The notes under the pieces were generated by a model. The model did not search any database. It was not told the origin of the DNA and saw only the letters and a program-made list of their open reading frames with translations. A DNA stretch of 64,000 nucleotides, taken from NCBI GenBank assembly GCA_942493375.1, contig OW818698.1, positions 6,082,139 to 6,146,138 on the forward strand, in the 5' to 3' direction. This DNA is from Abditibacteriota bacterium. Its GTDB lineage: Bacteria; Armatimonadota; UBA5829. Of this stretch, positions 8,883 to 61,994 are shown piece after piece. Position numbers and translations under genes: made by a program. The number at the start of each line of letters is the position of its first letter. Within the stretch, counting starts at the first letter, position 1.

Positions 8883-8958
8883 TAGCCCGCATTATACATG
8901 ATAGACTCACTTTCGCTCCTACTGCCGGTCGAAAGTAGAGACTGGTGTATAATGCGGG
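8883..8958. repeat. Nested-hairpin intergenic repeat, family 1, copy 2 (divergent copy with compensatory stem changes)
   Basis: AGCCCGCATTATACATGATAGACTC...CTTTCGCTCCTACTGCCGGTCGAAAG...GAGACTGGTGTATAATGCGGG. The loop CCTACTGCCGG is identical to the other copies. Stem substitutions are paired. Confidence 0.75.
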
Positions 8959-8992
8959 TTTGGTTGCAACAGCCAAACAATCGGAGGCTAGA

Positions 8993-12166: not shown

Positions 12167-12568
12167 CCTGTTTTGTCATGTATAGAGAATGCTAGTAGTA
12201 TACTGTGTGACAAACGGGAAAAGTCAATGAATGCCATTATAGTAGATGACTTGTATTGCATAAAATGAAGTCAATTGTGTGAAGTGCAATGGTGCATGCT
12301 TAGGTAATATTGCACTGTAGATAGGTGTATATCTTTAGACTGGCCTCGAAAAACACCTTAAATACTTTCGCAAATCTTTAAAACTCCCCTAAGTATTATC
12401 GCGACAAAACCAATCATATGATATGTATCTGCAATTGATACATAGTGGAGCGCATCGTATCTCGTAAGGGCATCATATTACATATATGCTTGCTGTGCAA
12501 GAAACTGCTGTCACTATGCAGATGCTGGAATGTGTTTTGTGCGTGAACAACTTTACAGGAGAACAAAA

Positions 12569-22700: not shown

Positions 22701-23314
22701 TTGCTCTGCCGGGCTGATAGCCATGTGGACTGCGCTCCCGGTGAGACTACCGTTTTCAGGCATTTGCTGCCGGAGTGAGGGTTCTCTGATGTCCATGACA
22801 TATTGTGGGTGCTGTCACCGGTCTCGACCGACCAACCAAATGGACTGGTGCTATCACCCAATTCTACGCCGGTATTGGTCAATCCGCCTGCACCAGCAAG
22901 GAAATCCGGGACTTCCCAGGCGCTGGGATTGTCGAAATAGACCCATGAGTCAGTTTTTGACCCGGCAGGACATTCAATGGGGATCGTCAATATGCTACCA
23001 GCGAAAATCGGACCGGCTGTGAAGGGTCTAGCAGATGGATCAGTGATCAGCCATAGCATTTCGGTACCTTTGGAGTCACAGACTCTGATGCTCTGTGCTA
23101 GCACTCCTGTGAGTTGGATCTCTCCGGGGCCACTGCCGACTTTGAGAGTGACGGGTTCACCATTGACAGCTGACAATCCATTGTTAGTCGCCTGTACCCG
23201 AATACGTTGTTTCCAGTGCCCGTTGTTACCAAGATATAAATGGTCCTGCCAGTCTTGCGAGGAACAATTCACGCAAGCAAACAGGAAAAGCAGAGCAAAT
23301 AGATACCGAGACAT
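19709..23314 (-). CDS. Secreted protein with two CBM4_9-like carbohydrate-binding modules and a large C-terminal domain of unknown function (possibly glycosidase-like)
   Basis: Start at MSRYLF with GGAGG at 8-nt spacing. Signal peptide present. There are two jelly-roll modules: GWSVETGDSTHNMSW...AWFDDVSL, then NADFEVGEVLPDEWPGSAEG...VWHDGVVFIEV. It is co-directional with 16763..19585. Confidence 0.5.
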   Translation of the reverse strand: MSRYLFALLFLFACVNCSSQDWQDHLYLGNNGHWKQRIRVQATNNGLSAVNGEPVTLKVGSGPGEIQLTGVLAQSIRVCDSKGTEMLWLITDPSARPFTAGPIFAGSILTIPIECPAGSKTDSWVYFDNPSAWEVPDFLAGAGGLTNTGVELGDSTSPFGWSVETGDSTHNMSWTSENPHSGSKCLKTVVSPGAQSTWLSARQSNIRIVGGAKYTLKGWVKGLNTTGLVGWYIHVGNDSNTMMISPMPTIGGGTFDWKEVVAEFTAPAEANKADLGTVLYGTGTAWFDDVSLETTAKAIVTAEAFAPEKLMLKGIGADAKWPQSKKFGWRVPVTLTNLTSTPVKPGLVSVNLSATISRLRGEADLKTMQVMEGKRLISHVRLVDSVLFAGSDIPANTSKTYFIYLPYATKGKVSLVKTEAAVRQTGTTEDARQNNNAQAFKSAETSKVDYEKLLKSPRNLAKNADFEVGEVLPDEWPGSAEGDKPVGAFLGFDSNALFGKQCLKISVPATSKAAWLGWRQSIPVTPGRTYLYAAWVKCKDTVGDGVQLHAHIRNDKDEVVTYAGTGPAISGTAGWTLISGLFEIPQGASIFQMHLTMRCTGTVWHDGVVFIEVGSGAVGSPQPATSSLLANGLTAWPVNAIKKVFQEDTPPAKISPAQITVAGNEYEPLQIALRSPAALKQVKAVVTLPQDKAGYKLSNVEIGVVGYVPIDHATSYYSSTTPMWYRKYPTTLGSSDGWAGMWPDPLLPKDTFDLKANTTQPVWVTVNPPKGTPAGDYSGKLSFVCNGKTIKQVPFTVHVWGFDLPDEMHTASVYDSGLNDRWQIPGQTSEQTKFQYWEFMAKHRLSPDRIQPEPNITYQNGKVIADFTEFDKAAEYYFNVLKLPHTYTPWYFYMFGWGFPPDAKFGEKPYEGDYPYPDADKNVLRPEFKKAVQSCIKVYWDHMKEKGWDKKVVYYMSDEPFYSQAGTVAQMKALCRMVQEVDPAIPIFSSTWGHVPEWDSYLTMWGIGHFGGVPESTIKKIRSDGARIRFTTDGQMCTDTPYNAIERLLPHYCFKYGVESYEFWGSSWLTYDPYKFGWHSYIHQSDTPGKSYYVRYPNGDGYIAYPGAPIGHNGPVPSIRMEQAREGSEDYEYLYMLQELINKAKAAGKDANVGEKALAYANTLVDMPSAGGQKSTRILPDPDAVLRIKTAVAKAIEAMNR

Positions 23315-23420
23315 ATTCCAGACCTCCACAGCAAAATATTATTGAACTGATACTATGACTAAGTCATACGTCGTGTTTCTGTTATAATAAGACATCCGCT
23401 GGAAGGCGGACTGGAGGATT

Positions 23421-23720: not shown

Positions 23721-25916
23721 TCAGACTACTGCCCGGTTTATGATCTCGTCTTGTATACTTTTTTCCAGAATGTTGAAGTATGCGCTGTAACCGGCTACCC
23801 TTACTACCAGGTTCGGATAGGCTTCGGGGTTGCTTTGGGCTTTGAGTAGAACGTCTTTATCTATCGCAGAAAGTTGAAGTATTGATCCATTATCCTGGAC
23901 AAATTTGTAAATCAATGCCGATACCACATCGTTAGTCAGTTTGTCTCCGGCTGGCAGGTTGATGTCCAATACTCCACCTCCTGCATACTTCTCCATGGGT
24001 ATTGTTGAAGCTGCATTTAACACAGATGTCAGGACTCCTGCATTCTTTTCAGCTGGTGACATACCCCTTGTGAAATACTGCCCGGACTTTCTGCCGTCCG
24101 GGGTTGCCTGGAACATACTCCCCCAGACTTTGAAGATAGTGTAAGTAAAGAGAGTTGCTTCGAACTTGCCCCCACGACCATTCGGTTGGCCGTTAGCAGC
24201 GTCTGCAACATCTGAACCTACCATTGCAGTAAACTCGTTGAGTTCAGGAGTATCTTCACCATACTTTGGAACGCGCCTAAGGACGTAGTCTTGAATATAC
24301 TCATATCCCACATAATCAGCATCCAACGCGGCTCTGAGTTCGTCCATCGTGCAGACCTTGTCGTCAAAGACCAGTTTTTTAACTCCCATCAGAGAATCTA
24401 ACAGAGATCCCAGGCCATTCAGGGATATTCCTGACGTGTTGTACCTGGCACCACCACCCAGTATGTCCACCGCCTTGCTCAAACAGTCGTCAACGCTGCA
24501 GGAGAGCATAGGGGAGGGGTTCATTATGACGGCCTTGGCTTCATATACTGCCCCCATCGCCGATATCGAGTCCAGCATTGCAGAAAGGTTCGTTTTGAAT
24601 GCCTGGTAGAACTCATCGAATGTCTTAGCTTTGGGGCCAGCATCAGTTAGTTTGAAATAATCAAGGTCCAGTGCTGTTGCCTTCTCAGGATGCAGGGTAA
24701 GCTGCAACGGCTTCAAGAGGTTTACATAGATGGTTGCTCTGAAATTGGACTCGGTGTTTTGCAATACGGGTTCCTGGCAGCCGCCGTTTACACCCAGTCT
24801 GCTGTCTTCAAGGCTCTTTCCGATCCTGACATTTGCGGCGATATTGGTTTCGTCTGCAAAAACAGCCAGAATATTGGTCTCAGATACCGTCAAGTCCGCA
24901 AGCAGATCTACATACTCTTTAGGACTGTCTACACAAACGTGAGCGTTGAGTTTCGGGTTGGAAAGGTGCAGGTCTTTGATCGCTCTGCAGATCATCTCTG
25001 TTATGTCGTTATAAACAGGCTTGCCTTCCCGGTCCATACCACCAATGTTCACAGTTGTTGAGGTTTCCGGTCCATTGGAAAGATCAAACCTTGCATCGGT
25101 TATAGCCATGAAAGACTGGATCAGATAGTATGCTTCATCGGGCGTTATACGTCCGGCTGCTAAGTCCGATTCATAATATGGCGCCAGCATGCGGTCGAGT
25201 TGTCCGTATATGCTGACTCCTATGCCTTCGAGTCCGCTGCAGGCTTCTCTGTAGAAAAGTATCGTGTTTAGGGCTTCATAGAAGCTGGTCGGAGCTTGAG
25301 CCGGGCATTTACGGGCTGTTTTGGAAATTTTGGTTAACCGATTAACTACATCCGGGTCAGTCTCGGTTTTAAGCATTGCATCAGCTAAATCGGCGTGTCG
25401 GTTGGCAAATGCAATCAGGCATTCCATTGAGACAATCGCAGCTTCCAGGAATTCTTTCTTGTCGGTTGTTTCGACAGTCTGAAGTCTCGTCAGTGCCTTT
25501 TGCCTGAGACCTTCAAGGCCATATTGCAATATATTGTCATAACCTGCGCACTGGTGGTCCCAGTCAATAAACTGCCAACTGACAAATGCTGCTTCTTCTC
25601 TGAATGCATCAATAATTGGCTGGACCAGAGCAGTATGCTCCCAGTTGCGTTCCCGCATCAGCGCTCCGACACCAGTCATTCCCCACATATTTCGCGGTCT
25701 GGAGTCTTCAATCACATAATAGAACGGACTCGTTTTGAACAGATGCACTTTGCAAGTTTCAAGCTCTGCAAGGTAGAGCATTTTTTTCTGAACGAAAGGA
25801 GACTGGTCATCGTTTAGTAATTGAAGCCACACATCTTTCGTGGCTGAAGTATCTGTGCTGGTATTGGAGTAGTATTGCTCATATTCCTGGAAGAACGCCT
25901 GCTTATCGAAATGCAT
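23721..25916 (-). CDS. Glycyl radical enzyme (PFL2 / glycerol dehydratase / CutC / HypD class)
   Basis: C-terminal glycyl-radical motif VVRVAGYSAYFNILEKSIQDEII. Active-site loop GVNGGCQEPVL. 731 aa. Confidence 0.75.
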   Translation of the reverse strand: MHFDKQAFFQEYEQYYSNTSTDTSATKDVWLQLLNDDQSPFVQKKMLYLAELETCKVHLFKTSPFYYVIEDSRPRNMWGMTGVGALMRERNWEHTALVQPIIDAFREEAAFVSWQFIDWDHQCAGYDNILQYGLEGLRQKALTRLQTVETTDKKEFLEAAIVSMECLIAFANRHADLADAMLKTETDPDVVNRLTKISKTARKCPAQAPTSFYEALNTILFYREACSGLEGIGVSIYGQLDRMLAPYYESDLAAGRITPDEAYYLIQSFMAITDARFDLSNGPETSTTVNIGGMDREGKPVYNDITEMICRAIKDLHLSNPKLNAHVCVDSPKEYVDLLADLTVSETNILAVFADETNIAANVRIGKSLEDSRLGVNGGCQEPVLQNTESNFRATIYVNLLKPLQLTLHPEKATALDLDYFKLTDAGPKAKTFDEFYQAFKTNLSAMLDSISAMGAVYEAKAVIMNPSPMLSCSVDDCLSKAVDILGGGARYNTSGISLNGLGSLLDSLMGVKKLVFDDKVCTMDELRAALDADYVGYEYIQDYVLRRVPKYGEDTPELNEFTAMVGSDVADAANGQPNGRGGKFEATLFTYTIFKVWGSMFQATPDGRKSGQYFTRGMSPAEKNAGVLTSVLNAASTIPMEKYAGGGVLDINLPAGDKLTNDVVSALIYKFVQDNGSILQLSAIDKDVLLKAQSNPEAYPNLVVRVAGYSAYFNILEKSIQDEIINRAVV

Positions 25917-27036: not shown

Positions 27037-28641
27037 TTATTTCTCCCAGTCCGGTCTTAACCTGTTCTGAGTTTCCCACAGGTCAAGTATCACAAGAGCG
27101 GACATTGATTCTATTACAGGGATGACCCTTGGGATAATGCAGGGATCGTGTCTCCCGAGCACACTGAGGTCGATATCATCACCGCTGTAAGTTGATGCCA
27201 GCTGGTTTGTTGAAACCGATGCAGTGGGCTTTATAGCAACCCTTATCAGGATCTCCTGGCCAGTGCTGATACCCCCCAGGATTCCTCCGGCATTATTGGA
27301 CTTAAATCCATCGGAACGTATAGGGTCGTTGTGCTGGCTGCCTCTCATCTTTACGCAGCTGAATCCTGAGCCTATTTCGAACCCTTTGACTGCACCCAGG
27401 CTGAGAATAGCTCTACCGATAAGTGCATCGAGTTTGTTGAAAACAGGATCGCCGAGTCCAGCAGGAACTCCATTTATCCGCAGTTCGATAATACCACCGA
27501 CTGAATCCCCGTCGTCTCGTGCAGATTCGATTGCCTTTATCATTTTTGGTGCTGCATTCGCATCAGCACATCTGACTGGATTGCGCTCGATTTCGTTGAT
27601 ATCAAAGCTTTCTGCACGAATACCACCCAGTTCCAATGCGTGAGCTGTAAATGTGACTCCTCTTGCAGCCATTATCTTCCTCGCCACTGTTCCACCAGCG
27701 ACTCTACCGGCAGTCTCTCTACCGGATGATCTTCCACCGCCGCGGTGATCGCGAATGGCAAACTTGCGCCAGAATGTGAAGTCAGCATGGCCTGGACGGA
27801 ATATCTCCCGCAGGTAGTCATATCTTCCTGAGTCCTGGTTGGTGTTTTCAATTACAAAGCATATAGGAGCGCCGGTGGTCCTACCTTCGAAGACTCCTGA
27901 TAGGATTTTCACTCTGTCAGGTTCATTCCTGGGAGTTGTTACGCTGCTCTGTCCAGGTCTTCTGCGGTCGAGTTCGGCTTGAATATCTTCTTCGGAGAGT
28001 TCGAGGCCTGGTGGAACACCATCCAGAACTGAACCTATCGCAGGTCCGTGGCTCTCTCCAAATGTGCTGACCCGGATTGCTTCTCCAATGGTGTTTGGTT
28101 CAGTTGTCCGCGTGGCCATCTCTTCAGATATACCATCGCTAACCTTCTCAGCAACTTCCACAGGAGTCAGTCCGGTAGTATCCACACATACATCCGTATA
28201 TGGATAAATAATCTCAATAGTCCGATCGAGTCTTTCGGTGAAGACTTCAAAACCGTTGTCTCCAGCATAGAATGGGGGAAGTCCACGACCTTTCATTCTC
28301 TCCCAGAGTATATCTTTATCTGCAGTGAGAAGCACGATGATGGATTTCTTGCGCAGGATTCTTCTGGATTCCGGGTTTACCAGCGCAGCACCACCGGTGC
28401 ATATAATCCGCCAGTCCAGGTCCTTGCAGGCCTCAACAGCTCTATGTTCCAGCTTTCTAAACGCAGGTTCACCTTCAGCCAGGCATATTTCCCTGCAGGT
28501 AGCCCGGGAACCAGTGTCTTCGGCGTAAATATCTTCAATCAGATCGTCAGTCTCAACAACACTCAGACCGAGTCTTCGGCTGACTTCCTGAGCAATTGTG
28601 CTTTTTCCGGAACCTTTGGGACCTGCAATTACTACCCGCAT
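27037..28641 (-). CDS. aroKC: Bifunctional shikimate kinase / chorismate synthase (AroK-AroC fusion)
   Basis: N-terminal P-loop VIAGPKGSGKSTIAQEVSRRLGL...ETDDLIE and the CTGGAA...LWERM lid are shikimate kinase. The C-terminal FGESHGPAIGSVLDGVPPGL...RRRPGQS...KILSGVFEGRTTG...FRPGHADFT...RGGGRSSGRET matches AroC nearly residue for residue. Confidence 0.85.
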   Translation of the reverse strand: MRVVIAGPKGSGKSTIAQEVSRRLGLSVVETDDLIEDIYAEDTGSRATCREICLAEGEPAFRKLEHRAVEACKDLDWRIICTGGAALVNPESRRILRKKSIIVLLTADKDILWERMKGRGLPPFYAGDNGFEVFTERLDRTIEIIYPYTDVCVDTTGLTPVEVAEKVSDGISEEMATRTTEPNTIGEAIRVSTFGESHGPAIGSVLDGVPPGLELSEEDIQAELDRRRPGQSSVTTPRNEPDRVKILSGVFEGRTTGAPICFVIENTNQDSGRYDYLREIFRPGHADFTFWRKFAIRDHRGGGRSSGRETAGRVAGGTVARKIMAARGVTFTAHALELGGIRAESFDINEIERNPVRCADANAAPKMIKAIESARDDGDSVGGIIELRINGVPAGLGDPVFNKLDALIGRAILSLGAVKGFEIGSGFSCVKMRGSQHNDPIRSDGFKSNNAGGILGGISTGQEILIRVAIKPTASVSTNQLASTYSGDDIDLSVLGRHDPCIIPRVIPVIESMSALVILDLWETQNRLRPDWEK

Positions 28642-30836: not shown

Positions 30837-31619
30837 TCATAATCCCGCCGGGATTTCGTAATTCATTAATTTCACATGCCCATCAGCAAACCCACAGTTA
30901 TATCCACCGTTGTGTCTTTCGACTGCTTCTTCGATCGGAGCGGATGAGTTCCAACCTGTATTGGTGTCGAACAACATCGGAGTGCTGAAAGGTTCTGTAA
31001 TATTTGTCATGCTTACACCTTCCAGCTTTCCATAGAGTGAATAACCTCCTGATGCTTTGAACGCTGGACAAGTAAAAACCTTTTTGTCTTTCTCATAGGA
31101 TGCGAAGACATCAGACCAACTTCCGGCCAGGGGGAACTTATCATCATAGTCCTGCGCATACATCATGGCAGCATTACTGAGCTTATGTAGATTTGTAGCA
31201 CAGGTGGACTGACGGGCTTTCTCCCGGGCTTTGGCAAATACCGGAAAGAGAATTGCTGCAAGTATAGGGCTTAAAACTAACCCGGCAGTTCCTATTGCAC
31301 CCAACACAATTCCAGCTACAGCCAGCCCATGACCTTTTTGTCTACCCCAGCTGGACTTTATCTGGTTCAAAGCAACTATGCCCAGAATCAAGCCGACGAT
31401 TCCCATAAGTCCCAAAAACGGTATAATCCCCACCAAACCCAACACAAGAGAAGCTATTGCCATACCATTTTTAGATTTCTCCACAGAATCCGGAATCGAA
31501 TATGCCGGCTGAGGTCTGTAAGTGTCCTGAAACGGTGGACTTGGCGGAGCACTACCTGTACAGCTCTCGCACACCGTGGTTCCTTCGGGTAATTCCTTAC
31601 CACATTTACCACAAAACAT
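30837..31619 (-). CDS. Zn-ribbon / DUF4190 membrane anchor / pseudopilin-like H-X9-DG (DUF1559) protein, paralog 1
   Basis: MFCGKCGKELPEGTTVCESC zinc ribbon. A Pro-rich linker. DUF4190-like two-helix segment MAIASLVLGLVGIIPFLGLMGIVGLILGIVALNQIKSSWGRQKGHGLAVAGIVLGAIG. Pilin-like helix ILFPVFAKAREKARQSTCATNLHKLS. The H-X9-DG motif sits in RHNGGYNCGFADGHV. Confidence 0.75.
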   Translation of the reverse strand: MFCGKCGKELPEGTTVCESCTGSAPPSPPFQDTYRPQPAYSIPDSVEKSKNGMAIASLVLGLVGIIPFLGLMGIVGLILGIVALNQIKSSWGRQKGHGLAVAGIVLGAIGTAGLVLSPILAAILFPVFAKAREKARQSTCATNLHKLSNAAMMYAQDYDDKFPLAGSWSDVFASYEKDKKVFTCPAFKASGGYSLYGKLEGVSMTNITEPFSTPMLFDTNTGWNSSAPIEEAVERHNGGYNCGFADGHVKLMNYEIPAGL

Positions 31620-31633
31620 TATAATGCCTCCAA

Positions 31634-31966
31634 TTAGTGTTCCAGATCATTGATTATAGGTATTAAATATGCTCCCATGAATATTTGGATGACCAGCACA
31701 ATAATTCCGAGACATCCAATTACAATTCCTGCTATGGCCATTCCTCCGCCTTTTTGCCTTCCCATACTGGCTGTGATTTGGTTCTGACCGATTATTCCGA
31801 AAATTACTGCTACGATCCCGAACCCGAGCATTAGACCCGCAATACTTACGACCAGAGATGCCATAGCCATCTTATTGGTCTTTTGTGCTGACAAGATACT
31901 GCTTTTACAACTTTCGCATACAATGATTCCATCAGGCAATTCCTTACCACACACTTCACATTGCAT
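31634..31966 (-). CDS. Zn-ribbon / DUF4190 membrane protein (short paralog with no H-X9-DG domain)
   Basis: MQCEVCGKELPDGIIVCESC followed by the two-helix NQITASMGRQKGGG segment. 110 aa. Confidence 0.65.
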   Translation of the reverse strand: MQCEVCGKELPDGIIVCESCKSSILSAQKTNKMAMASLVVSIAGLMLGFGIVAVIFGIIGQNQITASMGRQKGGGMAIAGIVIGCLGIIVLVIQIFMGAYLIPIINDLEH

Positions 31967-31994
31967 ACTAATGCTTCCATTTCGTGTATGAATA

Positions 31995-32825
31995 TCAGTT
32001 GTTCATGCGATTATCGTCTTTCTCGTACCGCTTATATCCGGTGGCTGTTGCTCCTTTGGGTAGAACCCACGTCACATGACCATCTACGAAGCTGATGTTA
32101 TATCCTCCCTGGTGTCTGGCATCGAAACTGCTTACAGGTAGAGCAGAGTTCCATCCACCTTTGGCATCAAAAAGCAGTGGTGTGTTCGAGGGAATTGTGA
32201 TTTTCTCCAGACTTACCTGGTCGAGTTTATCATTGAAGGAGAATCCGCAATCCAGTTTCCGTGCAGAAGGGCAGCGGAATACCCGACTTTCATTGGTTAG
32301 CGGAGCGATTGCATCTGACCATTTATCAGCAATGGGCATTTTGCCATTGTAATCCTGTGTATAAGCCGAGACCGCCAGCGAGAGCTGTTTCAAGTTTGAC
32401 ATGCAGCTAGAGTCACGGGCTTTCATTCGTGCATTGTCGAATACAGGGTATAATATTGCACCAAGTATTATTGGGATAAACGCCACAGTCCCGATACACC
32501 CGACTACAATTCCTGCTATAGCTAATCCTCCGCCTTTTTGTCGTCCCATACTGGCTTTGATCTGGTTTTGACCGATTATACCTAGAATGATTGCCACAAT
32601 CCCTAGTCCTATTGCGAATCCCACTATACTTACTACCAACGATGCTATTGCCATACCGTTGGTCTTTTGCGCAGAATTCGGAGTTACATAATCCGGCTGA
32701 ATATAAGGTGGAGGTTGTGGAGGAAGATTGAATGACTGGGAGGATACGGATGCATTGCTCGATGTACAGCTTTCGCATACGGTGTTACCATCTGGTATTT
32801 CTTTACCACACTTGCTGCAGAACAT
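31995..32825 (-). CDS. Zn-ribbon / DUF4190 / H-X9-DG (DUF1559) protein, paralog 2
   Basis: MFCSKCGKEIPDGNTVCESC. The DUF4190 segment. ILYPVFDNARMKARDSSCMSNLKQLSLAVSAYTQDY. The H-X9-DG motif sits in RHQGGYNISFVDGHV. Confidence 0.75.
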   Translation of the reverse strand: MFCSKCGKEIPDGNTVCESCTSSNASVSSQSFNLPPQPPPYIQPDYVTPNSAQKTNGMAIASLVVSIVGFAIGLGIVAIILGIIGQNQIKASMGRQKGGGLAIAGIVVGCIGTVAFIPIILGAILYPVFDNARMKARDSSCMSNLKQLSLAVSAYTQDYNGKMPIADKWSDAIAPLTNESRVFRCPSARKLDCGFSFNDKLDQVSLEKITIPSNTPLLFDAKGGWNSALPVSSFDARHQGGYNISFVDGHVTWVLPKGATATGYKRYEKDDNRMNN

Positions 32826-32867
32826 AATAATACCTCCGTGATATATGAATATTGACTGCGAACTTTC

Positions 32868-33029
32868 GTAGGGGAGACCCTCTGCGGTCTCCCGAAGCAG
32901 AACCTAGCAGGAGACCGCAGAGGGTCTCCCCTACGGATAAAGAATAATGCTGCAAAGCTTTGTAGGGGCGATCCCTCTGCGGTCTCCCGAAGCAGAACGT
33001 AACGGGAGACCGCGGAGGGTCTCCCCTAC
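32868..33029. repeat. Two tandem copies of an about 67-nt nested perfect hairpin between paralogs 2 and 3
   Basis: GTAGGGGAGACCCTCTGCGGTCTCC-CGAAGCAGAACCTAGCA-GGAGACCGCAGAGGGTCTCCCCTAC (32868-32934), with a second near-identical copy at 32962-33029. Each arm contains an inner palindrome GGAGACC...GGTCTCC. Confidence 0.8.
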
Positions 33030-33043
33030 GGTAAGAGACTGGT

Positions 33044-33931
33044 TTATGGTCCATATGGGCTGGAGCCGGGAGATGATCCACCGCTTGGACCCATATACTT
33101 TACATGGCCATCAACGAATCCGCAGTTATACCCTCCGTTGTGTCTGAAAACAACTTTGTCTATGGGCAGGGCAGAATTCCAGCCTCCGTTTGAGTCGAAA
33201 AGCATTGGTGTATCCGAAGGTTTGGCAATCTTTTTCAGGCTCACACCATCCAGAGCTTCATAGAGTGAATATCCACAGGTTAATGAAGTTGCTTCAGGAC
33301 AGACAAAGACATTGTTATTCTTGATATACGGCTGCAGTCCATCTGTCCATTTTGTAGCCGGGGGCATATGCTGGTCATAATCCTGCATATACATCATCAC
33401 ACCCAATGAAAGCTGCTTAAGGTTTGATAGACATGATGTTCTACTTGCAGACATGCGTGCGCGATTGAATACCGGCATTCCAGCGCTAAACATACCGGCT
33501 ATCATGATAATTGGGAGTATTAACGAAACACAACCCACAGCAATACCAGCTATTGCCAGGCCTGAACCCTTCTGCCTTCCATTGCTGGCTTTTATCTGGT
33601 TGTTGGCTATAATACCCAGGATCAATCCAACAATACCAATTCCCATAAATAAACCCACTATACTGACTACCAACGATGCTATAGCCAACCCATTTGTAGT
33701 TTGCACCGAATCTGGGTCTATATACATCGGTCGTGAAATTGGAGGTTGTTGAAAAGGAAATTCTGGTTGTTGGGGGGGAGAGGGTGGATTGCTGCTGGAA
33801 CAATTCTCACAGACGGTGACGCCTTCAGGCATCTCTTTACCACACTTGTTACAGAACATTTTCATGCCTCCGGTACACGGCAAGTCGTAGTGCTGCCGAT
33901 CTGGCGCTGTATATCCATCATCTCCCTCCAT
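33044..33931 (-). CDS. Zn-ribbon / DUF4190 / H-X9-DG (DUF1559) protein, paralog 3
   Basis: MFCNKCGKEMPEGVTVCENC. The DUF4190 segment. MPVFNRARMSASRTSCLSNLKQLSLGVMMYMQDYD. The H-X9-DG motif sits in RHNGGYNCGFVDGHV. Confidence 0.75.
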   Translation of the reverse strand: MEGDDGYTAPDRQHYDLPCTGGMKMFCNKCGKEMPEGVTVCENCSSSNPPSPPQQPEFPFQQPPISRPMYIDPDSVQTTNGLAIASLVVSIVGLFMGIGIVGLILGIIANNQIKASNGRQKGSGLAIAGIAVGCVSLILPIIMIAGMFSAGMPVFNRARMSASRTSCLSNLKQLSLGVMMYMQDYDQHMPPATKWTDGLQPYIKNNNVFVCPEATSLTCGYSLYEALDGVSLKKIAKPSDTPMLFDSNGGWNSALPIDKVVFRHNGGYNCGFVDGHVKYMGPSGGSSPGSSPYGP

Positions 33932-33979
33932 ATTGTGAGGTTATGGAGGGAGATAATAGTTAATGCTGTTATCCTGGAA

Positions 33980-34630
33980 TTATGCCTGTGATTTCATAAT
34001 AACAGACCAGTTTGAAGCAGTGCGGATCGCAGTGCTGTAATCAATTCTAGTCGGTGTTGTATTCAACTTGTTCATGCGTGTGCCATTATAGTTACCATTC
34101 TGCTGTCTGGCTTGTTCACGTAATTTTAGAATCGCTGGGAACACGACTGCCAGCACCAATACAAATAGAACCATACCGACAATGCCGATTATTATCCCGG
34201 CCAATGCCAGTCCGGCTCCACCTTGTCTTCCACCACTGGCGTTTATCTGGTTTTTTGCCACTACACCCAGAATTAGTCCTATCAATCCTAATCCCAACAG
34301 GCTACATACTAGGGATCCAATTGCCATTCCACTGGTTGATTGTGGTGCCGACTGACTCTGGAATGGTTGACCTGGGTATGGTGAGTTTGGGCCAGGGCCA
34401 CCAGGATAGGGTGAATTAGGAGCAGGGGTTCCCGGGTATGGTGACTGCGGAGGTATTGGCCCTGAGTTGGGTGGGGGTGGAGCTGACTGACTAAATCGAG
34501 AGGGTGTCTGAGCAGGCTGGGATACTGTGGGGGGCGCTTTGAAATCGGTTGACGGTGTCTTTCCAGTCGCGCATTCCTCACACATAACAACTCCATAGGG
34601 GACATCTTTACCGCATTTTTTACAATACAT
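33980..34630 (-). CDS. Zn-ribbon / Pro-rich linker / DUF4190 membrane protein with only a short pilin-like tail
   Basis: MYCKKCGKDVPYGVVMCEEC. A long Pro-rich segment (SPYPGTPAPNSPYPGGPGPNSPYPGQ). The DUF4190 segment. FPAILKLREQARQQ and a short C-terminus. Confidence 0.65.
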   Translation of the reverse strand: MYCKKCGKDVPYGVVMCEECATGKTPSTDFKAPPTVSQPAQTPSRFSQSAPPPPNSGPIPPQSPYPGTPAPNSPYPGGPGPNSPYPGQPFQSQSAPQSTSGMAIGSLVCSLLGLGLIGLILGVVAKNQINASGGRQGGAGLALAGIIIGIVGMVLFVLVLAVVFPAILKLREQARQQNGNYNGTRMNKLNTTPTRIDYSTAIRTASNWSVIMKSQA

Positions 34631-34674
34631 CTGTGTTCCTCCACGTTATAAATAAGGTCTTGAATTCGTATATG

Positions 34675-35541
34675 TTATTGGTCTAGCTTAATTGTTGTTT
34701 CGCTGTCTATATGAAAACCAACCGGTAGAGTGCCCGAGTTGATCATATCAGCCATACGTTTAGCTTCATTGATATTGGCGAACCCCGATATCTGTGCTTT
34801 TCCATCCGGGATCTCCTCTCTAATTTGAGGAGCCATCAGGAGCTTTCCATCATAAATAACCGCCAAAATCCCACCGATATTGTTCTTTGTAAACTCCGCA
34901 AAACGTTTTCCGGATTCCGGTTTGAACTCCAAATCCAGCATTGCGAATTTATCCTGGCTCCGCACAGCTCTGGCATTTGCCAGAAAGTCTTCACTTCTAA
35001 AAGCAAGTTTTACTTTCGGAATGCCAACTACTCTAGCCAGAAATTGTTTTGTATTGCTGAGCGAGTCAAGTGCTTCACCGGTAGGAGATGTAAAAGTGAA
35101 CGCTTCGCCGGTATGCACAGGCCCCTGCATTCTCCAGGATCCATACGGATTGGCATCGGACTGGACATCAGCCAGCAGATACATCTCCAGCGCAGCTCCG
35201 GACGTTATTCTGGCTCTAGCTTCCGTATGATTCTTAATGCCTGGAAGAAAAACCTCTATCTTGTTATTTTCTTTTACATCAACTCTCGAGGATGATGTGA
35301 AATCCAAATCATTGAGTCTCTTGCGCATCGTAACACGACAGGCATCTAACAGAGCCTTTTGATCCGCTGAACTATTCGGCCAGTTGGGACTGGTCATATC
35401 CGGAGACAGGACCAGTTTTATACCATTCACAGGTATATCCTCATCACTCCCGGTATTTGGAGCATAGAGCAGATATATACCTGCAACTAATGCGATTGCT
35501 ATTAACGGTAACCATATAAATCTGCCAATGCTGTTTAACAA
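34675..35541 (-). CDS. Stand-alone SecD periplasmic P1 (base plus head) domain protein with a single N-terminal TM helix. It lacks SecD TM2-6.
   Basis: TM helix [48 protein letters not shown] parallels E. coli SecD [81 protein letters not shown] matches the SecD P1-head pattern (vLDg.visaP.I.e.I.gG.aqItG.f...eA..La..L.aGaLP). The ORF ends right after the head. Confidence 0.65.
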   Translation of the reverse strand: [288 protein letters not shown]

Positions 35542-35593
35542 TAATAGGTCGTCCTAAATGATGATGTACCAAAGTTGAGTTTAGCTCTGAAAA

Positions 35594-36511
35594 TTACCGA
35601 CTGTTTCCAGGACCAGTGCTTCTTCTACCTGTTCCCATGCCGGGCATGCCACCAGGGCCTGTGCTATGTTCATTGATAACCTTGAGCGCTATCGGCATTC
35701 CCTCTTTGGATGTTACGATATCTATGACTTCCTGCCGGTTTTTGACTCCGGGTATAATAAGTATCAGAGTGACTGCGCTAACACTGGGTATAACTCCCGC
35801 GGCTGCGTGAGAATCTGTTATGCGTTTTTCGATTATATCACTTGATTCGCTAAGTTTGCGCTTGAGTGCTTCCGGCCCAATTCTTTGTGCTTCCATGGGA
35901 TCTGCTGGTACCAGAGTTAGATTCAAGCTGCCCTGGGTCTGCATACTCTGGCTATATTTCATGCTTTTGGTGACTGTCTTACCGAAATCACCTCCACCGC
36001 GCTCACCTATTACATAGAACAGCGCCACTATACCAACAATGCACCACAATACACTGAGCATACCGCCGATGACCGCCAGGTTCATACCCTTCTGCCGGGC
36101 CCTGTTAGCATCGATCATAAAAATAGCTACCAGAGCGAGGAAGAAACCCACAATAGCAGTAACAGGTATGGCACCGCAGATTAAGGCTGCAACAGCAACC
36201 TTGTTGTTCTGCTTCATGCTATCGGGTATATCTTGAGGGATCTGTTTGTACTCTGCTGCTGCAGCTGCCGGAGACAGGTGCATATTAGTCCCGCAGAAAG
36301 TGCAGAAATCGGAACCCTCAATAACCTGCTTTCCACATACAGGACATGAAACTGCTGCATGCTGCCAGGTCAACTGGTTATCTAGCGTTTCCTGAGGTGG
36401 CGGTGTGTTATCTGCAGCAGGTTCAGCCGGAGCCTGGCGCACGTCATTTCCACAAAAAGTGCAGAAATCCGAATCCTCAACAATTTCTTTACCACACATT
36501 GGACAATTCAT
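35594..36511 (-). CDS. Double Zn-ribbon / DUF4190 membrane protein with a C-terminal SecD-N-terminal-like alpha/beta domain
   Basis: Two ribbons (MNCPMCGKEIVEDSDFCTFCGNDV and VSCPVCGKQVIEGSDFCTFCGTNM). The DUF4190 segment. The C-terminal LTLVPADPMEAQRIGPEALKRKL...TLILIIPGVKNRQEVIDIV resembles the P1-base region of the 34675 protein ([11 protein letters not shown]...[19 protein letters not shown]). Confidence 0.55.
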   Translation of the reverse strand: MNCPMCGKEIVEDSDFCTFCGNDVRQAPAEPAADNTPPPQETLDNQLTWQHAAVSCPVCGKQVIEGSDFCTFCGTNMHLSPAAAAAEYKQIPQDIPDSMKQNNKVAVAALICGAIPVTAIVGFFLALVAIFMIDANRARQKGMNLAVIGGMLSVLWCIVGIVALFYVIGERGGGDFGKTVTKSMKYSQSMQTQGSLNLTLVPADPMEAQRIGPEALKRKLSESSDIIEKRITDSHAAAGVIPSVSAVTLILIIPGVKNRQEVIDIVTSKEGMPIALKVINEHSTGPGGMPGMGTGRRSTGPGNSR

Positions 36512-36767: not shown

Positions 36768-39014
36768 ATGAAAATACTATCAACAAGGTTATTGTTATTA
36801 CTGATATTTATTCTGATATCGGCAGCCGCCGTTTTAGCTGCGCCGAATGCCGGAGTGTTCTGTGGTAAACAGAAAATCGGCGGAAGCGATTATTATGTGC
36901 TATCCAATGCATATACAAGCCTCTCTCTTAATGCCTCGGACCTGACATTATCTGCAATAAGGGTCCCTGGTAAAGAAAACCTGGTCACAGATCCAGGCTG
37001 GCCTTTGTTCAGAATAGGGTTTGTTCAGGAAATCAACAACTGGTTTGAGACAAAGCAGAGCTGGAGCATCAGCGGACTTGAAGCAACTAAACGATATGCG
37101 AAAATCGTTCGCAAGGGTAGCAGTGCAACGCTGGAACTGCATTTTGATAAGTGTCCAGTAAGTCCAGGCTGGAAAGGTGTTGATGTTCTTGTGAGTATAT
37201 CACTTGATCCATCAGCCAAATACACACGCTGGAATATGGCTGTCAGTGGAATAGGACCACTCAAGCTGGGAGAGGTACGCTTCCCGGTATTGACTGGCCT
37301 GGGTAGCACTCGAAAAGGGACCGAAAAAACAGACTATATAGTTGGTCCAGTTTTTTCCGGCATGAAGTTCACAGAGCCGAGGACGAAGAACCCGTTGACT
37401 CAGGGGTTTGTTGAATATCCCGGTCCTGGAATGGCTGTGCAACTGCTTACATATTGTGATGGAATAAGTTCTCAAAGTTTCATGGTGTCTACCCTGGACA
37501 ATAGGGGATACAGAAAAACATATGAATCAATCCCCATGCCGGGTGGGAAGTCTTTCACCTGGAGCGTGATTCACTATCCTGATGGTCGCGAGACTAATGG
37601 GAAGTGGTCAATGCCATACAGTGTTGCTATCGGAGCAATAAGCGGTGATTGGTACGATGCAGCTAAAATCTACAGGGGATGGGCATCCAAACAGCCCAGG
37701 TGGAGTCCGATATTGACCCGTAAAGGTGTTCCTGACTGGTTCAAGAACCTCTCAGTATGGTATCAGGGACAGGACAGAAACCCATCTGAAGAACTTATGG
37801 TTAAACACATCGCTCAGCTTAAAGCTATACGCGAGAGACTTGGGGAAGATATTGCATTCCACTGGTATATGTGGCAGAAAGATAAGGACCACGACTACCG
37901 TTATCCTGACTATTTCCCATCTCAACCGGGGTTTAAAGAGGCAGTAGCTGAGCTCCAGAAGTCCGGAGTCCACTGTATGCCCTATATGAACATGAGGTTG
38001 TTTGATTCCTTTACAGATATGTGGATAGCAGAAAAGGCCGAACCCTGGGCTATCCCGGATGCAAAAGGCAAACTCTACGATGGAATCGTCAATGACCGCG
38101 TTAAGATGTATACAATGTGCGCTGGCACCAAATACTGGCGGGACAAACTGGTTTATATCATAACCAAAATGTTCCAGGACTACGGCACTGACGCTGTCTA
38201 TTTAGATGAACTCCATACCTATGCCTATTTATGCTATGCCGCCAACCACGAACATAAAGGCTGCGGTGGGACATATCTTGCTGAAGGTTTCCGGGAAGTT
38301 ATTGACAGAGTCCGTAAGTCTTTCCCTGACCGTCAGTTGATGTTGACTGGAGAGAATATTTCTGAGACTTATGCAGATATAATCGATGCACAGTTAGTAG
38401 CTCATTCAGACCAGAACCCGGACAGTATCCCATTACTGCAGGCGATAATGAAAGACTGTACGGTGGAACTGGGCCTGACAATGCGCAGGGACGAAGCCTG
38501 GCATATAAGTTGTTTCGCTGCAAGGACAGGATTTGCATTGACCAGAGGCAGGCAACTGGGGTGGATCCAGTTCGACCAGGGAGATATGATGGATGCCAAC
38601 CACGTAAAGCAGGTGGATTTCCTCAAGAGCTGTGCTCACGCCCGCAAAGCAGGACAGAATTATCTTCTGTATGGAGAGTTCCTAAGGACTCCTATTGTCT
38701 CTGCGGGACCGCTGGAGAGCATCCGCTGGTTTGCGGATAAACCAGACGTAATGATGAACCCCATACTTGCCGAAGCTTACAAAAGCCCGGATGGAAAACT
38801 GGGGATAGTTGCAGCCAACATCACTACTGAAGTTAAGCACGCAGCATTCAAGTTGAACTACAAAGACTGGCCAATTGTAAAAGGCAAAACATACAAAATG
38901 CTGGTCTGGCAGGCAGACAAATGGTCCGAGCCAAAAACCATAACTGCAGGGGACAGCATAACGCTAGATATTCCAGCTTACCAGCCGGTGATCCTGGAAT
39001 TACAGAAGCAGTAG
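36768..39014 (+). CDS. Secreted putative glycoside-hydrolase-like protein of unassigned family (paralog B of 5652..8381)
   Basis: GGAGA RBS. Signal peptide. Collinear similarity to the 5652 protein across the putative catalytic barrel. Confidence 0.5.
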   Translation: MKILSTRLLLLLIFILISAAAVLAAPNAGVFCGKQKIGGSDYYVLSNAYTSLSLNASDLTLSAIRVPGKENLVTDPGWPLFRIGFVQEINNWFETKQSWSISGLEATKRYAKIVRKGSSATLELHFDKCPVSPGWKGVDVLVSISLDPSAKYTRWNMAVSGIGPLKLGEVRFPVLTGLGSTRKGTEKTDYIVGPVFSGMKFTEPRTKNPLTQGFVEYPGPGMAVQLLTYCDGISSQSFMVSTLDNRGYRKTYESIPMPGGKSFTWSVIHYPDGRETNGKWSMPYSVAIGAISGDWYDAAKIYRGWASKQPRWSPILTRKGVPDWFKNLSVWYQGQDRNPSEELMVKHIAQLKAIRERLGEDIAFHWYMWQKDKDHDYRYPDYFPSQPGFKEAVAELQKSGVHCMPYMNMRLFDSFTDMWIAEKAEPWAIPDAKGKLYDGIVNDRVKMYTMCAGTKYWRDKLVYIITKMFQDYGTDAVYLDELHTYAYLCYAANHEHKGCGGTYLAEGFREVIDRVRKSFPDRQLMLTGENISETYADIIDAQLVAHSDQNPDSIPLLQAIMKDCTVELGLTMRRDEAWHISCFAARTGFALTRGRQLGWIQFDQGDMMDANHVKQVDFLKSCAHARKAGQNYLLYGEFLRTPIVSAGPLESIRWFADKPDVMMNPILAEAYKSPDGKLGIVAANITTEVKHAAFKLNYKDWPIVKGKTYKMLVWQADKWSEPKTITAGDSITLDIPAYQPVILELQKQ

Positions 39015-39068: not shown

Positions 39069-39140
39069 ATGATTGCATTCCATAATGTAGTTGACTACCA
39101 GAATTCACAGTGTTAGCATTGATGTGTTAAGGTGAATATT

Positions 39141-39389
39141 ATGGCAAAAATACAAGTTCAACTTACTGAAAAGCAGGTGCAAACTCTCAATGAGATGGCC
39201 CATAATCGTGGGATATCAATGGCGGAAATAATACGCCGTTCTCTCGTTGAATTCATTGATGAGGCATCTCTTCCTGGTAAAGATGAATTGAGAGAACGAG
39301 CTATCGCAGCTGTGGGATCAATTCATTCCGATACTACGGATCTTTCTGCGAGGACTGATGATTATCTTGAGAAAATCTACGCAGAATGA
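39141..39389 (+). CDS. Ribbon-helix-helix (CopG/Arc-like) small DNA-binding protein. An orphan antitoxin-like gene.
   Basis: N-terminal beta-strand KIQVQLTEKQ followed by two helices (VQTLNEMAHNRGISMAEIIRRSLVEFI). The ATG at 39141 has AAGGTGA 5 nt upstream. No toxin partner is adjacent. Confidence 0.45.
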   Translation: MAKIQVQLTEKQVQTLNEMAHNRGISMAEIIRRSLVEFIDEASLPGKDELRERAIAAVGSIHSDTTDLSARTDDYLEKIYAE

Positions 39390-41803: not shown

Positions 41804-43816
41804 ATGTCCAATTATAAGCTTAGATTCAGACAAATACACCTTGATTTCCATACATCTCCCCATATTCCCGGGATAGGAGAGAAGTTTGATAAAAAACAGT
41901 GGCAGGAAGCTTTGCAGGTCGGCCATGTTAATTCGATCACTACTTTCTCCAAATGCCATCATGGCTGGTCATATCATCCAACTAACGTTGGAAAGATTCA
42001 TCCCAATTTGAATTTTGACCTGCTCAGAGCACAGTTTGATGCAAGTAAAGAGATCGGGGTCAATGTTCCGATCTATCTTTCTGCAGGCGTTGACAGCGTA
42101 GCCGGTTATGAGCATCCTGAATGGAGAGAACTCTCTTATGAAGGCGCATATTCCGGTTGGTGCGGACCCATCCACCAGGCTGGATTCATGACTATGTGTT
42201 TCAACAGCCCATATCTTGGTTATCTTTGCGATCAGATCAGTGAAGCCGTGCGGCTTTTCCCTGATGGAGACGGGATTTTCCTTGATATCATCTTCCAGGG
42301 AGATTGCTGCTGCACTTACTGTCTGGACTATATGGCAAAGAACGGTCTGGATGCTGACAAGCCCGAAGACCGCGCAAAGTGCTCTCAGCATGGTCTGAAC
42401 CAGTACTATATTGAGACCACCAAAGCATGCAAATGCGATAATCCTAACTACCCTATTTTCCACAACAGTGGTCACGTGACTAAGGGCAACCGTGATATCC
42501 TCAAACACTTCAGCCACCTGGAGCTGGAATCTCTGCCTACCGGTGGATGGGGATATGATCACTTCCCAATGTCCGCAAACTATGTTCAGAACCTTGGCTT
42601 GGACTTCCTGGGAATGACCGGCAAGTTCCACACAACATGGGGAGAGTTCGGTGGATTCAAACATCCTAACGCATTGAAGTATGAATGTGCTGCTATGCTG
42701 GCATATGGATCAAAGTGCAGCGTGGGAGACCAACTTCATCCCTCTGGTGAAGCTGACATGACTACATATAAGCTGATCGGTGAAGCATATGCGGACGTTG
42801 AAGCCAAGGAAGCCTGGTGCGATAACGTCACAGGCGTTGCCGATATTGGAGTCCTTTCCAGTGAAGCAGAGTTCAAGAGCTCTCACGCTGAGACCGGTGC
42901 CTCCAGAGTATTGCTGGAAGGTCATTTCCTGTTCAACCTGCTTGATAGAGAATGCGACTTTGCTCCATATAAACTAATGATTCTCCCTGACGGAGTTTTG
43001 ATAGATGAAGCCCTGAAAGCCAAAGTAGATGCCTACCTGGCAGGTGGAGGAAAACTCCTGCTGACCGGCGCCAGTGGACTTAAAGCTGATGGATCTGGAT
43101 TTGCATTCGATACAGGAGCTGACTGGTTCGGTGAAAGTGAGTTCAGTCCGGACTTCATTCAGTTTGCAGATAAGGTGGCTCCCTCATTCATACAGAGCCC
43201 ACTGGTTATGTATAGAAAGAGCCAGAGAATCAAAGTAACTGATGGAGAGAACCTCGGAACTATCTGTGATCCTTACTTCAATAGATCCTGGAAGCATTTC
43301 TGCAGCCATCAGCACGCACCAAGCGCAGGCCCAACAGAGTTTGCATCAGGAGTAAGCAAAGGCAACATCACTTACCTTGCACACCCTGTATTTACCATCT
43401 ATTATGCAATGGGTGCAGTTGCTTACAAAGAATACGCAGTCAACGTGATCAATTCCATACTCGGATGCAGCAATACAGTGAAGACCAATATGCCTTCAAC
43501 TGCCAGAGTCAGCATCAAAGAGCAGCCGGAGGAGAACCGTTACATCCTGCACCTGCTGTATGCAAACACTATCTCCCGTGGAGCAACTGGTGGAATGCAC
43601 ACAACAGCTTCCGATGAACGGATGGTCTCAGTTGAGGTAATTGAGGAACTTCTGCCGCTGCACGATGTAAAAGTCGATGTATGTTTGCCTAAAGAGATCA
43701 AGAAGATTACTCTTGAGCCTCAGGGAGTCGAACTGCCGATAAAGATTGAAAATGGCAGAATATCAATAGAACAGGAAAAACTAGTCTGCCATCAGATGGT
43801 GGTCCTACACTACTGA
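41804..43816 (+). CDS. Putative glycoside hydrolase of the GHL6 / beta-galactosidase-trimerisation-domain type
   Basis: The N-terminus FRQIHLDFHTSPHIPGIGEKFD...SITTFSKCHHGWSYHPT is the hallmark of the hypothetical glycosyl hydrolase 6 (GHL6) family, which carries a GH42-like middle domain. Confidence 0.6.
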   Translation: MSNYKLRFRQIHLDFHTSPHIPGIGEKFDKKQWQEALQVGHVNSITTFSKCHHGWSYHPTNVGKIHPNLNFDLLRAQFDASKEIGVNVPIYLSAGVDSVAGYEHPEWRELSYEGAYSGWCGPIHQAGFMTMCFNSPYLGYLCDQISEAVRLFPDGDGIFLDIIFQGDCCCTYCLDYMAKNGLDADKPEDRAKCSQHGLNQYYIETTKACKCDNPNYPIFHNSGHVTKGNRDILKHFSHLELESLPTGGWGYDHFPMSANYVQNLGLDFLGMTGKFHTTWGEFGGFKHPNALKYECAAMLAYGSKCSVGDQLHPSGEADMTTYKLIGEAYADVEAKEAWCDNVTGVADIGVLSSEAEFKSSHAETGASRVLLEGHFLFNLLDRECDFAPYKLMILPDGVLIDEALKAKVDAYLAGGGKLLLTGASGLKADGSGFAFDTGADWFGESEFSPDFIQFADKVAPSFIQSPLVMYRKSQRIKVTDGENLGTICDPYFNRSWKHFCSHQHAPSAGPTEFASGVSKGNITYLAHPVFTIYYAMGAVAYKEYAVNVINSILGCSNTVKTNMPSTARVSIKEQPEENRYILHLLYANTISRGATGGMHTTASDERMVSVEVIEELLPLHDVKVDVCLPKEIKKITLEPQGVELPIKIENGRISIEQEKLVCHQMVVLHY

Positions 43817-53520: not shown

Positions 53521-54261
53521 ATGGGTCGGAGGTATATATTGAAAGAGCAGTTGAAAACTGTCTATAAAATTCACTGCATCGATAAAAGAGCAGCTGTGCT
53601 TAAGGCGCAACTGGCTGAGATTACTGCGTCTGATGAGTTCAAAAGGAAGATGGAATCTGCGGATCGTGCCGTTGCTTCTACTACCGCGGACTTAATAAAA
53701 AAAGACGCCGATATCAAGGATGCTGAACTGAGGCTGAAGTCTTTAGAGACAAAGCAGGCAGACTATGAAAAGCGCTATTATGACGGTAGTGTGAAAAACC
53801 CAAAAGAGTTGACCGCGATTGAAAAAGAAATCCAGCTGTTGAAGCAGCAGAGGTCAAAGATCGATGGGGAATTACTGGCTCTTTATGAGACTGCTACTGC
53901 AATGAGGGAGAAGCTTGCAAAAGCATCTAATGCCTCTCAAGTCTGGCGTCAGAGATATGATGTTGCTTACAAAAAGGAAGGCTCAGCCCGCCATAAACTG
54001 GAAAAAGAGCTGGCATCATTGATGACAGCCCGTAAGTCCAGTGTGGTGAAGGTTACCAACAGGGAGCTGATCTCCAGGTATGAAGCCATATCCAAGCGAG
54101 TAGGGGACACCGGCGCGGCTCTTGTGGTGGATAACCGCTGTGAAGCTTGCCATGTTGCGGTTACACATTATATAACCAGGGCTCTTGAGTCCGGGACTAT
54201 ATATGAGACGTGTGAAAGTTGCGGCAGAATCCTGTTGAGTTCCAAGGAATGCTCAGAGTAA
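53521..54261 (+). CDS. COG1579 / DUF164-type coiled-coil protein with a C-terminal C4 zinc ribbon
   Basis: Long coiled-coil (heptad-rich with K/E/L) ending in CEACHVAV...CESCGRIL. 246 aa. Confidence 0.6.
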
Positions 54262-61911: not shown

Positions 61912-61994
61912 TCCGGAGTCCTTCTTTCGATGTTGTCCAATTTCGAGCATTATTCCCCAAGCTCTGCTTTCATCCTGCAGTAGGGACGAAAATA

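Follow-up and report, generated by a model that had tools for sequence, protein, structure and literature searches.

What can the periplasmic P1 domain of SecD do when it is encoded alone, apart from the membrane motor that moves it? According to the current model of SecDF function, protons flowing through the membrane bundle set in motion the P1 head, the part that takes hold of preproteins as they emerge. The driving element is a proton wire within a 12-helix bundle of the RND type (involving D519 of SecD and R247 of SecF in E. coli), and the P1 head, which has a hydrophobic pocket, moves under the control that the proton-motive force (PMF) exerts from this bundle (PMC8669966). The question is raised by a gene at positions 34675 to 35541, on the minus strand, of a 64,000-nucleotide stretch of contig OW818698.1 from an Abditibacteriota bacterium, hereafter referred to as the window. 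As shown below, the product of this gene is a type II membrane-anchored periplasmic protein which comprises a complete SecD P1, that is, the base and the mobile head, and nothing else.

The identity of the domain is supported by both sequence and structure. In Pfam, the head is matched by SecDF_P1_head (PF22599) over residues 185-274 with 71.6 bits (cut-off 27, E=6.3e-20), and residues 69-123 score 24 bits against SecD_1st (PF21760), slightly below the cut-off of 27. The closest solved relatives by sequence are the SecDF structures 3AQO (E=8e-18) and 3AQP (E=1e-16) of T. thermophilus, and the PDB sequence search aligns the P1 head with residues 165-256 of 3AQP. The AlphaFold2 (AF2) model, for which the input alignment contained 22 sequences, reaches a pLDDT of 86.2 and a pTM of 0.73, and base and head can be made out in it together with a final strand that runs back to the base; the complete P1 base is thus present in the model, even though its PF21760 sequence score remains sub-threshold. 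In a Foldseek comparison with the PDB, the best 11 matches are all SecDF. The best structural match by target-normalised TM-score is the isolated P1 crystal structure 3AQO (TM-score 0.76-0.77), and the model fits the I-form 5XAP (root-mean-square deviation 4.0 Å) better than the F-form 3AQP. These results bear out the initial annotation of the locus, which had read from the letters a single N-terminal transmembrane (TM) helix followed by SecD P1 base and head, and they confirm the similarity to P1 for which it had proposed structure prediction and Foldseek as a check. Compared with the P1 of SecD and SecDF in T. thermophilus (3AQP, 5YHF) and D. radiodurans (5XAN/5XAP), the protein has the same fold and the same order of elements, from TM1 through base and head to the return strand, and it keeps the head motif of SecDF (F..FT...G..LA...DG.....P.I...I..G.A.I.G......A...A..L..G.LP), at an identity of 19-26% to the solved SecDF structures and of about 32% to the nearest full-length SecDF. 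The gene and its parts are located as follows.

34675..35541, minus strand: P1 gene, 288 aa, TTG start, coordinates including the stop codon
35464..35517, minus strand: N-terminal hydrophobic helix, residues 9-26, counterpart of SecD TM1 (helix 10-26 in the AF2 model)
35176..35424, minus strand: N-terminal half of the P1 base, residues 40-122, beta-alpha-beta-beta-alpha-beta, SecD_1st-like, containing 'EVFLPGIK' (PF21760, AF2, Foldseek)
34984..35175, minus strand: connector and start of the head, residues 123-186, with the motifs NPxGxW(R)M, FTF/FTGP and (I)DS
34717..34983, minus strand: core of the P1 head, residues 187-275 (PF22599, E=6e-20)
34690..34716, minus strand: last strand back to the P1 base, residues 276-284, the protein ending 4 residues further on (AF2, SecDF alignment)

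TTG is the first possible start after the upstream stop in this open reading frame (ORF). It was accepted because the next candidate, a GTG at residue 38, would cost the conserved N-terminal helix, in which 16 of 18 residues (89%) are unchanged in an orthologue of 71% overall identity; the GTG was rejected for this reason. In the sequence, an arginine (R7) before the helix and an acidic stretch behind it point to an N-in/C-out topology. Neither a lipobox cysteine nor a plausible site for signal peptidase was seen at the N-terminus, and as a proline directly follows 'LYA', the helix most likely stays uncleaved and serves as a signal anchor.

The protein is not a SecD, since it lacks the membrane domain and the proton wire, falls short of the whole-protein score and is not encoded in a sec operon. 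Against the NCBIfam equivalog for SecD (TIGR01129) it reaches 98.2 bits, where the cut-off is 244.4, and covers profile positions 30-238 of 397 only. No match to SecD_SecF_C (PF02355) is found in the protein, which has a single hydrophobic helix, and the region of the SecD/SecF bundle that holds the proton-wire residues is absent from it. Unlike SecDF, it therefore comes without TM2-12, without the P4 domain and without a secF/yajC context. In the alignment with full-length SecDFs, its end, 'ETTIKLDQ', falls where these run on into DSVEPTLGKETV ('VEPTLG') and TM2, and the initial annotation was thus right to place the end exactly at the TM2 boundary. Its further observation, that no sequence for TM2-6 follows downstream, holds for the whole window: when two full SecDFs (849 and 836 aa) were compared by tblastn with the six frames of the 64 kb, only SecDF residues ~35-285 matched, on the P1 ORF, and no SecD/SecF membrane-bundle sequence was detected in any frame. 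The gene directly downstream encodes a zinc-ribbon/DUF4190 protein, and neither secF nor yajC nor any other sec gene lies within the 64-kb window. The T. thermophilus construct 3AQO is likewise a bundle-less P1, and the window protein amounts to its natural counterpart, tethered to the membrane; 3AQO, however, is a laboratory fragment, whereas the window protein is the product of a self-standing gene under selection and has an anchor and gene neighbours of its own.

The P1 gene is a genuine, conserved gene. Orthologues of 288 aa with 95% (P0001) and 71% identity (P0002) are found in the same gene order as in the window, and the exact protein is on record in an NCBI entry. The 71% homologue lies on metagenome contigs of 71-259 kb, in which the gene order matches across the whole neighbourhood. 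Compared with the 71% orthologue, the ratio of nonsynonymous to synonymous substitution rates (dN/dS) of the gene is 0.097, with synonymous sites near saturation, and the most constrained parts of the protein are the TM helix (89% identity) and the head core (84%), followed by base and connector (67%). A frameshift or an assembly error was rejected, because tblastn finds no bundle in any frame, including the other frames in which the initial annotation would have expected it in this case, and because the 288-aa orthologues come from independent assemblies. A pseudogene was rejected on account of the dN/dS of 0.097.

Free-standing P1 is not a one-off; the initial annotation missed the breadth of the family. 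An exhaustive HMMER search of 1.84 billion representatives returned 4,352 matches, and the census of proteins that consist of P1 only was taken from the 150 best-scoring representatives listed together with other gathered proteins, grouped into clusters of 50% identity, with duplicates of the window protein removed. This set contains 52 P1-only clusters with a median length of 276 aa and one N-terminal hydrophobic segment, of which 48 stop 0-7 residues past the end of the P1 profile and 26 carry a lipoprotein box. The window protein shares the defining properties of this group, namely a length of about 255-300 aa, an export signal in the form of an anchor or a lipobox, a complete P1 and an end that precedes TM2, and a profile of 28 P1-only members matches its residues 1-284. 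At the loci inspected, the P1-only genes are complete, lie within their contigs and are not followed by a bundle gene; they are located in contexts that resemble those of the Planctomycetes, Verrucomicrobia and Chlamydiae (PVC), with DUF1559/N_methyl genes and glycoside hydrolases but no conserved neighbour. P1-only lipoproteins of about 260-290 aa (P0004, P0010, P0152, P0154) have the same architecture, end point and connector motifs as the window protein at 26-37% identity; most of these lipoproteins have a lipobox cysteine ('AAGCS') in place of the longer, uncleaved helix of the window protein, and their loci, unlike the window, are without a zinc-ribbon/DUF4190 array.

The connector motifs NPxGxW(R)M, FTF/FTGP and (I)DS are common to the P1-only family and one lineage of full-length SecDF (P0008 type), and the two share the motifs NPxGxW, FxGPxGxxIDS and P.LTG.DL.PNA at 45-60% identity. 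One entry counted as P1-only, P0006, is 60% identical to the full-length P0008 and diverges directly after 'VEP', and may be a truncated SecDF. When 79 P1 domains were placed in a neighbour-joining tree, P1-only sequences and those from full-length proteins came out interleaved on long branches, a pattern too weak to count origins. A profile search of genome contigs with 3 close sequences found no relative, a metagenome scan added only a known lineage (locus L025, which belongs to the same lineage as the syntenic locus L001 described below), and full-text literature searches found no account of free-standing or truncated SecD P1 proteins. Free-standing P1 proteins make up a large, widespread and apparently undescribed family, which is motor-less, consists mostly of lipoproteins of about 276 aa, has its relatives in one SecDF lineage and is common on PVC-like metagenome contigs.

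In addition to these stand-alone forms, P1 is found joined to other domains. In P0070, a PF13240 zinc ribbon is connected to P1 via one TM helix. The P1 head forms the extracytoplasmic part of zf-HC2/FecR anti-sigma factors (P0015, P0027) and is fused to an extracytoplasmic function (ECF) sigma factor (P0100) and to a Ser/Thr kinase with TPRs (P0105), while P1 is also fused to a CsgG/LpoB-like lipoprotein (P0131) and occurs in tandem copies (P0022, P0087). To judge by the fusions to zinc ribbon, anti-sigma factor, ECF sigma factor, kinase and CsgG/LpoB-like lipoprotein, P1 would be an autonomous periplasmic module. A further case is provided by Hellea-type alphaproteobacteria, in which three loci (L023 5650-9695; L026 4650-8977; L027) encode a 358-aa lipoprotein between yajC and secD-secF, in an operon that adjoins tatABC. 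This lipoprotein (P0163, P0166, P0168) matches PF22599 only and is, like the window protein, free-standing, bundle-less, PF22599-positive and exported; it is longer, however, has another N-terminal half, shows about 36% identity over 30% of the query and lies within a canonical yajC-secD-secF context. Its position between yajC and secD would link free P1 heads to secretion.

In the window, the P1 gene has neighbours of a different kind.

35594..36511, minus strand: upstream neighbour, 305 aa: two zinc ribbons on the cytoplasmic side, a DUF4190-like hairpin in the membrane, and a C-terminal domain in the periplasm (Pfam)
35660..35929, minus strand: C-terminal domain of this neighbour, residues 195-284, ferredoxin-like, resembling a head-less P1 base or SecF P4 (AF2, hhalign)
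33980-34630, minus strand: first co-directional downstream gene, zinc ribbon and DUF4190 (Pfam/NCBIfam, as for the next four)
33044-33931, minus strand: second downstream gene, zinc ribbon and DUF4190
31995-32825, minus strand: third downstream gene, zinc ribbon and DUF4190
31634-31966, minus strand: fourth downstream gene, zinc ribbon and DUF4190
30837-31619, minus strand: fifth downstream gene, zinc ribbon and DUF4190

The seven genes, which are co-directional from 36511 to 30837, are separated by intergenic gaps of 14-218 bp, those around the P1 gene measuring 44-52 bp, and to judge by this arrangement they probably form one operon. Three of the five downstream genes also carry a pseudopilin-like periplasmic domain of the DUF1559/H-X9-DG type, and the paralogues 33980 and 31634 consist of the anchor portion only. 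These DUF1559/H-X9-DG domains are preceded by the cytoplasmic zinc ribbon and the DUF4190 membrane module, in place of the cleavable leader that prepilins usually have; inspected by eye, the DUF1559 proteins show no motif of the G/FTLIE type, and a pilin-like helix, 'ILFPVFAKAREKARQ', follows directly after the last DUF4190 helix. In the literature search, DUF1559 turned up in planctomycete genome studies only.

The family of the upstream neighbour is limited to the lineage of the window and adjoins the P1 gene in every relative seen. When positions 30837-36511 of the window are compared with positions 9077-15584 of L001, the seven cluster proteins are 58-80% identical with a dN/dS of 0.10-0.20, whereas the flanking chorismate synthase, Pyr_redox_2 protein and DUF6259 protein are 89-96% identical with a dN/dS of 0.025-0.05. 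Measured against the same relative as the P1 gene, the other cluster genes have values of 0.13-0.20 and the flanking genes again values of 0.025-0.05. As the dN/dS of the cluster thus exceeds that of its flanks, the cluster is under selection yet evolves several-fold faster than its surroundings.

The C-terminal domain of the neighbour deserves separate attention. Its residues 195-284 are modelled by AF2 with a pLDDT of 83-91 as beta-alpha-beta-beta-alpha-beta, in the element order of the P1 base. At the C-terminus of a 60% orthologue, PF21760 passes its cut-off (28.5 against 27 bits, E=1e-6), whereas the C-terminus of the window copy, taken alone, has no Pfam match. By hhalign, the profile of the neighbour family aligns with the P1-only profile at a probability of 70% and E=4e-5, neighbour residues 212-273 corresponding to P1 residues 57-119; in a direct BLASTP comparison of the two proteins, the match is insignificant (E=0.063). 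Homology of this domain to the P1 base is moderately supported. A PilN/PilO/GspM-like role for both ferredoxin-like domains was also considered, and no such match appeared in the Pfam or Foldseek results.

With regard to function, we put forward, with about even confidence, the reading that the anchored P1-only protein, as a member of a motor-less family, is a passive polypeptide binder whose partners are the zinc-ribbon/DUF4190 proteins. Because the RND-type proton-conducting bundle is absent, the protein is unable to turn the PMF into pulling, so that the role of a puller, which had been suggested in the initial annotation next to that of a chaperone, is unlikely. Instead, the tethered P1 would act as a passive holdase or receptor, the conserved head of which captures, on the periplasmic side of the inner membrane, stretches of polypeptide that are extended or unfolded. 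Energy-independent polypeptide binding is the most likely activity, since the head is the most constrained soluble part of the protein and P1 heads are reused in export-facing contexts. In the lineage of the window, the partners would probably be the co-directional zinc-ribbon/DUF4190 membrane proteins, whose membrane hairpins may be contacted by the conserved TM helix of the P1 protein, and the P1 base could possibly pair with the head-less base-like domain of the upstream neighbour, by analogy with the P1 base and P4 in SecDF. That the P1 protein acts together with these proteins is suggested by the conservation of its TM helix and of its adjacency to them, and by P0070, a 'Rosetta-stone' fusion in which a zinc ribbon of their type (PF13240) is joined directly to TM and P1. 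A functional analogy may be drawn with PpiD and YfgM, inner-membrane-tethered periplasmic chaperones at the Sec exit, which would resemble the P1 protein in having one N-terminal anchor helix and a periplasmic client-binding domain at the membrane surface; the Pfam, NCBIfam and Foldseek searches returned no PpiD/YfgM match to the P1 protein, and there is no relationship in sequence or fold.

Several observations weigh against this reading. The proposed substrate binding is deduced from homology to SecDFs that are characterised or full-length, the identity to which is 25-32%, and the fusions to signalling proteins would suit a sensor no less than a holdase. The association with the neighbour is confined to one narrow lineage (the window, a 95% variant and L001/L025), and because the flanking housekeeping genes of L001 are 94-96% identical to those of the window, the adjacency amounts to little more than one independent observation. 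The location next to a pilin-like array, which is the basis for supposing a chaperone for the pilin-like proteins, is likewise found only in the lineage of the window; the other P1-only relatives examined have unrelated neighbours or, in the Hellea type, yajC-secD-secF. Promoter and terminator scans of the cluster gave results at chance level. Furthermore, Foldseek places the neighbour domain among generic ferredoxin-like folds only, with no SecDF. The P1-base-like C-terminus claimed for this neighbour at the outset is thus confirmed in part, by the orthologue, hhalign and the order of fold elements, but has no counterpart in the Pfam and Foldseek results for the window copy itself.

Two alternatives, both of which we consider unlikely and about equally so, survive best. 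According to the first, the P1 protein is a sensor subunit, in which the P1 head would sense a periplasmic ligand (e.g. unfolded or jammed secretory proteins) and the neighbours would relay this signal via their zinc ribbons to the cytoplasm. Such a process would be in line with the P1 heads of the anti-sigma factors (P0015, P0027), the ECF sigma factor (P0100) and the Ser/Thr kinase (P0105), with P0070, where a cytoplasmic zinc ribbon is linked to P1 through one TM helix, and with the cytoplasmic zinc ribbons that are found in all six neighbours. No sigma factor, kinase or DNA-binding output domain is present in or beside the cluster, however; PF13240 zinc ribbons are without an established signalling role, and five paralogous 'transducers' would be unusual.

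According to the second alternative, the protein is a general Sec accessory, a free P1 which docks on SecYEG/SecDF-YajC as an extra head, an adaptor or a competitor, while the pilin-like array is incidental. The P1-head lipoprotein gene between yajC and secD at the three Hellea-type loci is consistent with this idea, as is the lack of conserved neighbours around distant P1-only genes, which would be expected of a housekeeping accessory, and the nearest full-length relatives are indeed SecDFs. In the window, by contrast, the P1 gene is tightly kept, with its gaps of 44-52 bp, between fast-evolving genes for lineage-specific membrane proteins, it shares the raised dN/dS of the cluster relative to the flanks, and the 64 kb are without a sec gene.

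A more far-reaching and somewhat more doubtful proposal is that the P1 protein and the head-less base-like domain of its neighbour form a bundle-less, SecD/SecF-like periplasmic heterodimer, anchored by the TM helix and the zinc-ribbon/DUF4190 module, which serves the pseudopilin-like proteins. The pair could then act as a dedicated receptor or as a platform for assembly, or it could sense unfolded proteins and be connected to the cytoplasmic zinc ribbons. Its clients would be a new class of DUF1559 proteins, permanently anchored by their multi-helix N-termini and not processed by prepilin peptidase, and P1 would be an energy-independent polypeptide-binding module that has been reused in lipoproteins, anti-sigma factors and kinases.

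Much less probable is a split SecD, in which TM1 and P1 would form one piece and TM2-6 (and SecF) would be encoded elsewhere in the genome, the pieces reassembling into a motor. The TM1-like helix is kept and strongly conserved and the cut lies exactly at a domain boundary, as this explanation would predict, but half of the P1-only family has a lipoprotein signal in place of TM1 and would be unable to rebuild the bundle. Furthermore, the identity to SecDF is only about 32%, the dN/dS is 2-4x that of the flanking housekeeping genes, and the related full-length SecDFs of the P0008 type retain their own P1. Least probable is an artefact or a decaying remnant, in which the gene would be a piece of a pseudogene or a secD broken by a frameshift or by misassembly. 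P0006 could represent such a truncation of a P0008-like SecDF, but for the window locus this explanation is refuted by the absence of a bundle in any frame, by the same length and the same neighbours in independent assemblies and by the strong purifying selection, and it is further countered by the confident AF2 model.

Some other features of the window are worth recording. A 534-aa fusion of shikimate kinase and chorismate synthase (27037-28641, minus strand) aligns end to end with proteins in a Pirellulales metagenome-assembled genome (MAG; 53%) and in a MAG labelled Nitrospinota (55%), and the other matches to it cover the chorismate synthase half only. An RHH_1 antitoxin-like gene (39132-39389, plus strand) has no partner; at the corresponding position, L001 has an RHH_1 and PIN pair and an extra PDDEXK_3 gene, and the window seems to have lost the PIN toxin of this pair. 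A single ORF of 488 aa (54219-55685, plus strand) contains RNase H / RVT_3 and N6/N4 DNA methylase domains, and a methyl-accepting chemotaxis protein of 1380 aa (12530-16672, plus strand) comprises a 4HB sensor, PAS and a long HAMP_2 array (six scored stretches, 559 bits). Two DUF6259 proteins, one of them with CBM96, are encoded at 5652-8381 and 36768-39014 (both plus strand), and further large putative glycan-degrading proteins, in which the window is rich, are found at 66-1628, 8945-12166, 16763-19585, 19709-23329 and 41804-43816; this set includes GH123-like, GHL6 and weak GH39/GH42 similarities. Also encoded are a glycyl-radical enzyme (23721-25916) and a BadF/BcrAD-type ATPase, and together these genes point to an anaerobic polysaccharide degrader. 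The ORFs at 58495-61950 (minus strand, 1151 aa) and 56924-58111 (plus strand, 395 aa) have no Pfam match at E<=0.01, and none was found for the ORF at 1697-2200 (plus strand, 167 aa), which was scanned at 1e-5 only.

From the large family of bundle-less P1 proteins, together with the fusions of P1 heads to anti-sigma factors, sigma factors and kinases, it would follow that P1 is useful by itself, for instance in the binding or sensing of extended polypeptides, and natural soluble or tethered P1 proteins would allow substrate recognition to be studied apart from energy coupling. IMG calls a member of the sequence cluster to which the P1 protein belongs 'preprotein translocase subunit SecD'; this label is wrong, and such entries could distort the inference of Sec capacity in PVC-type bacteria.

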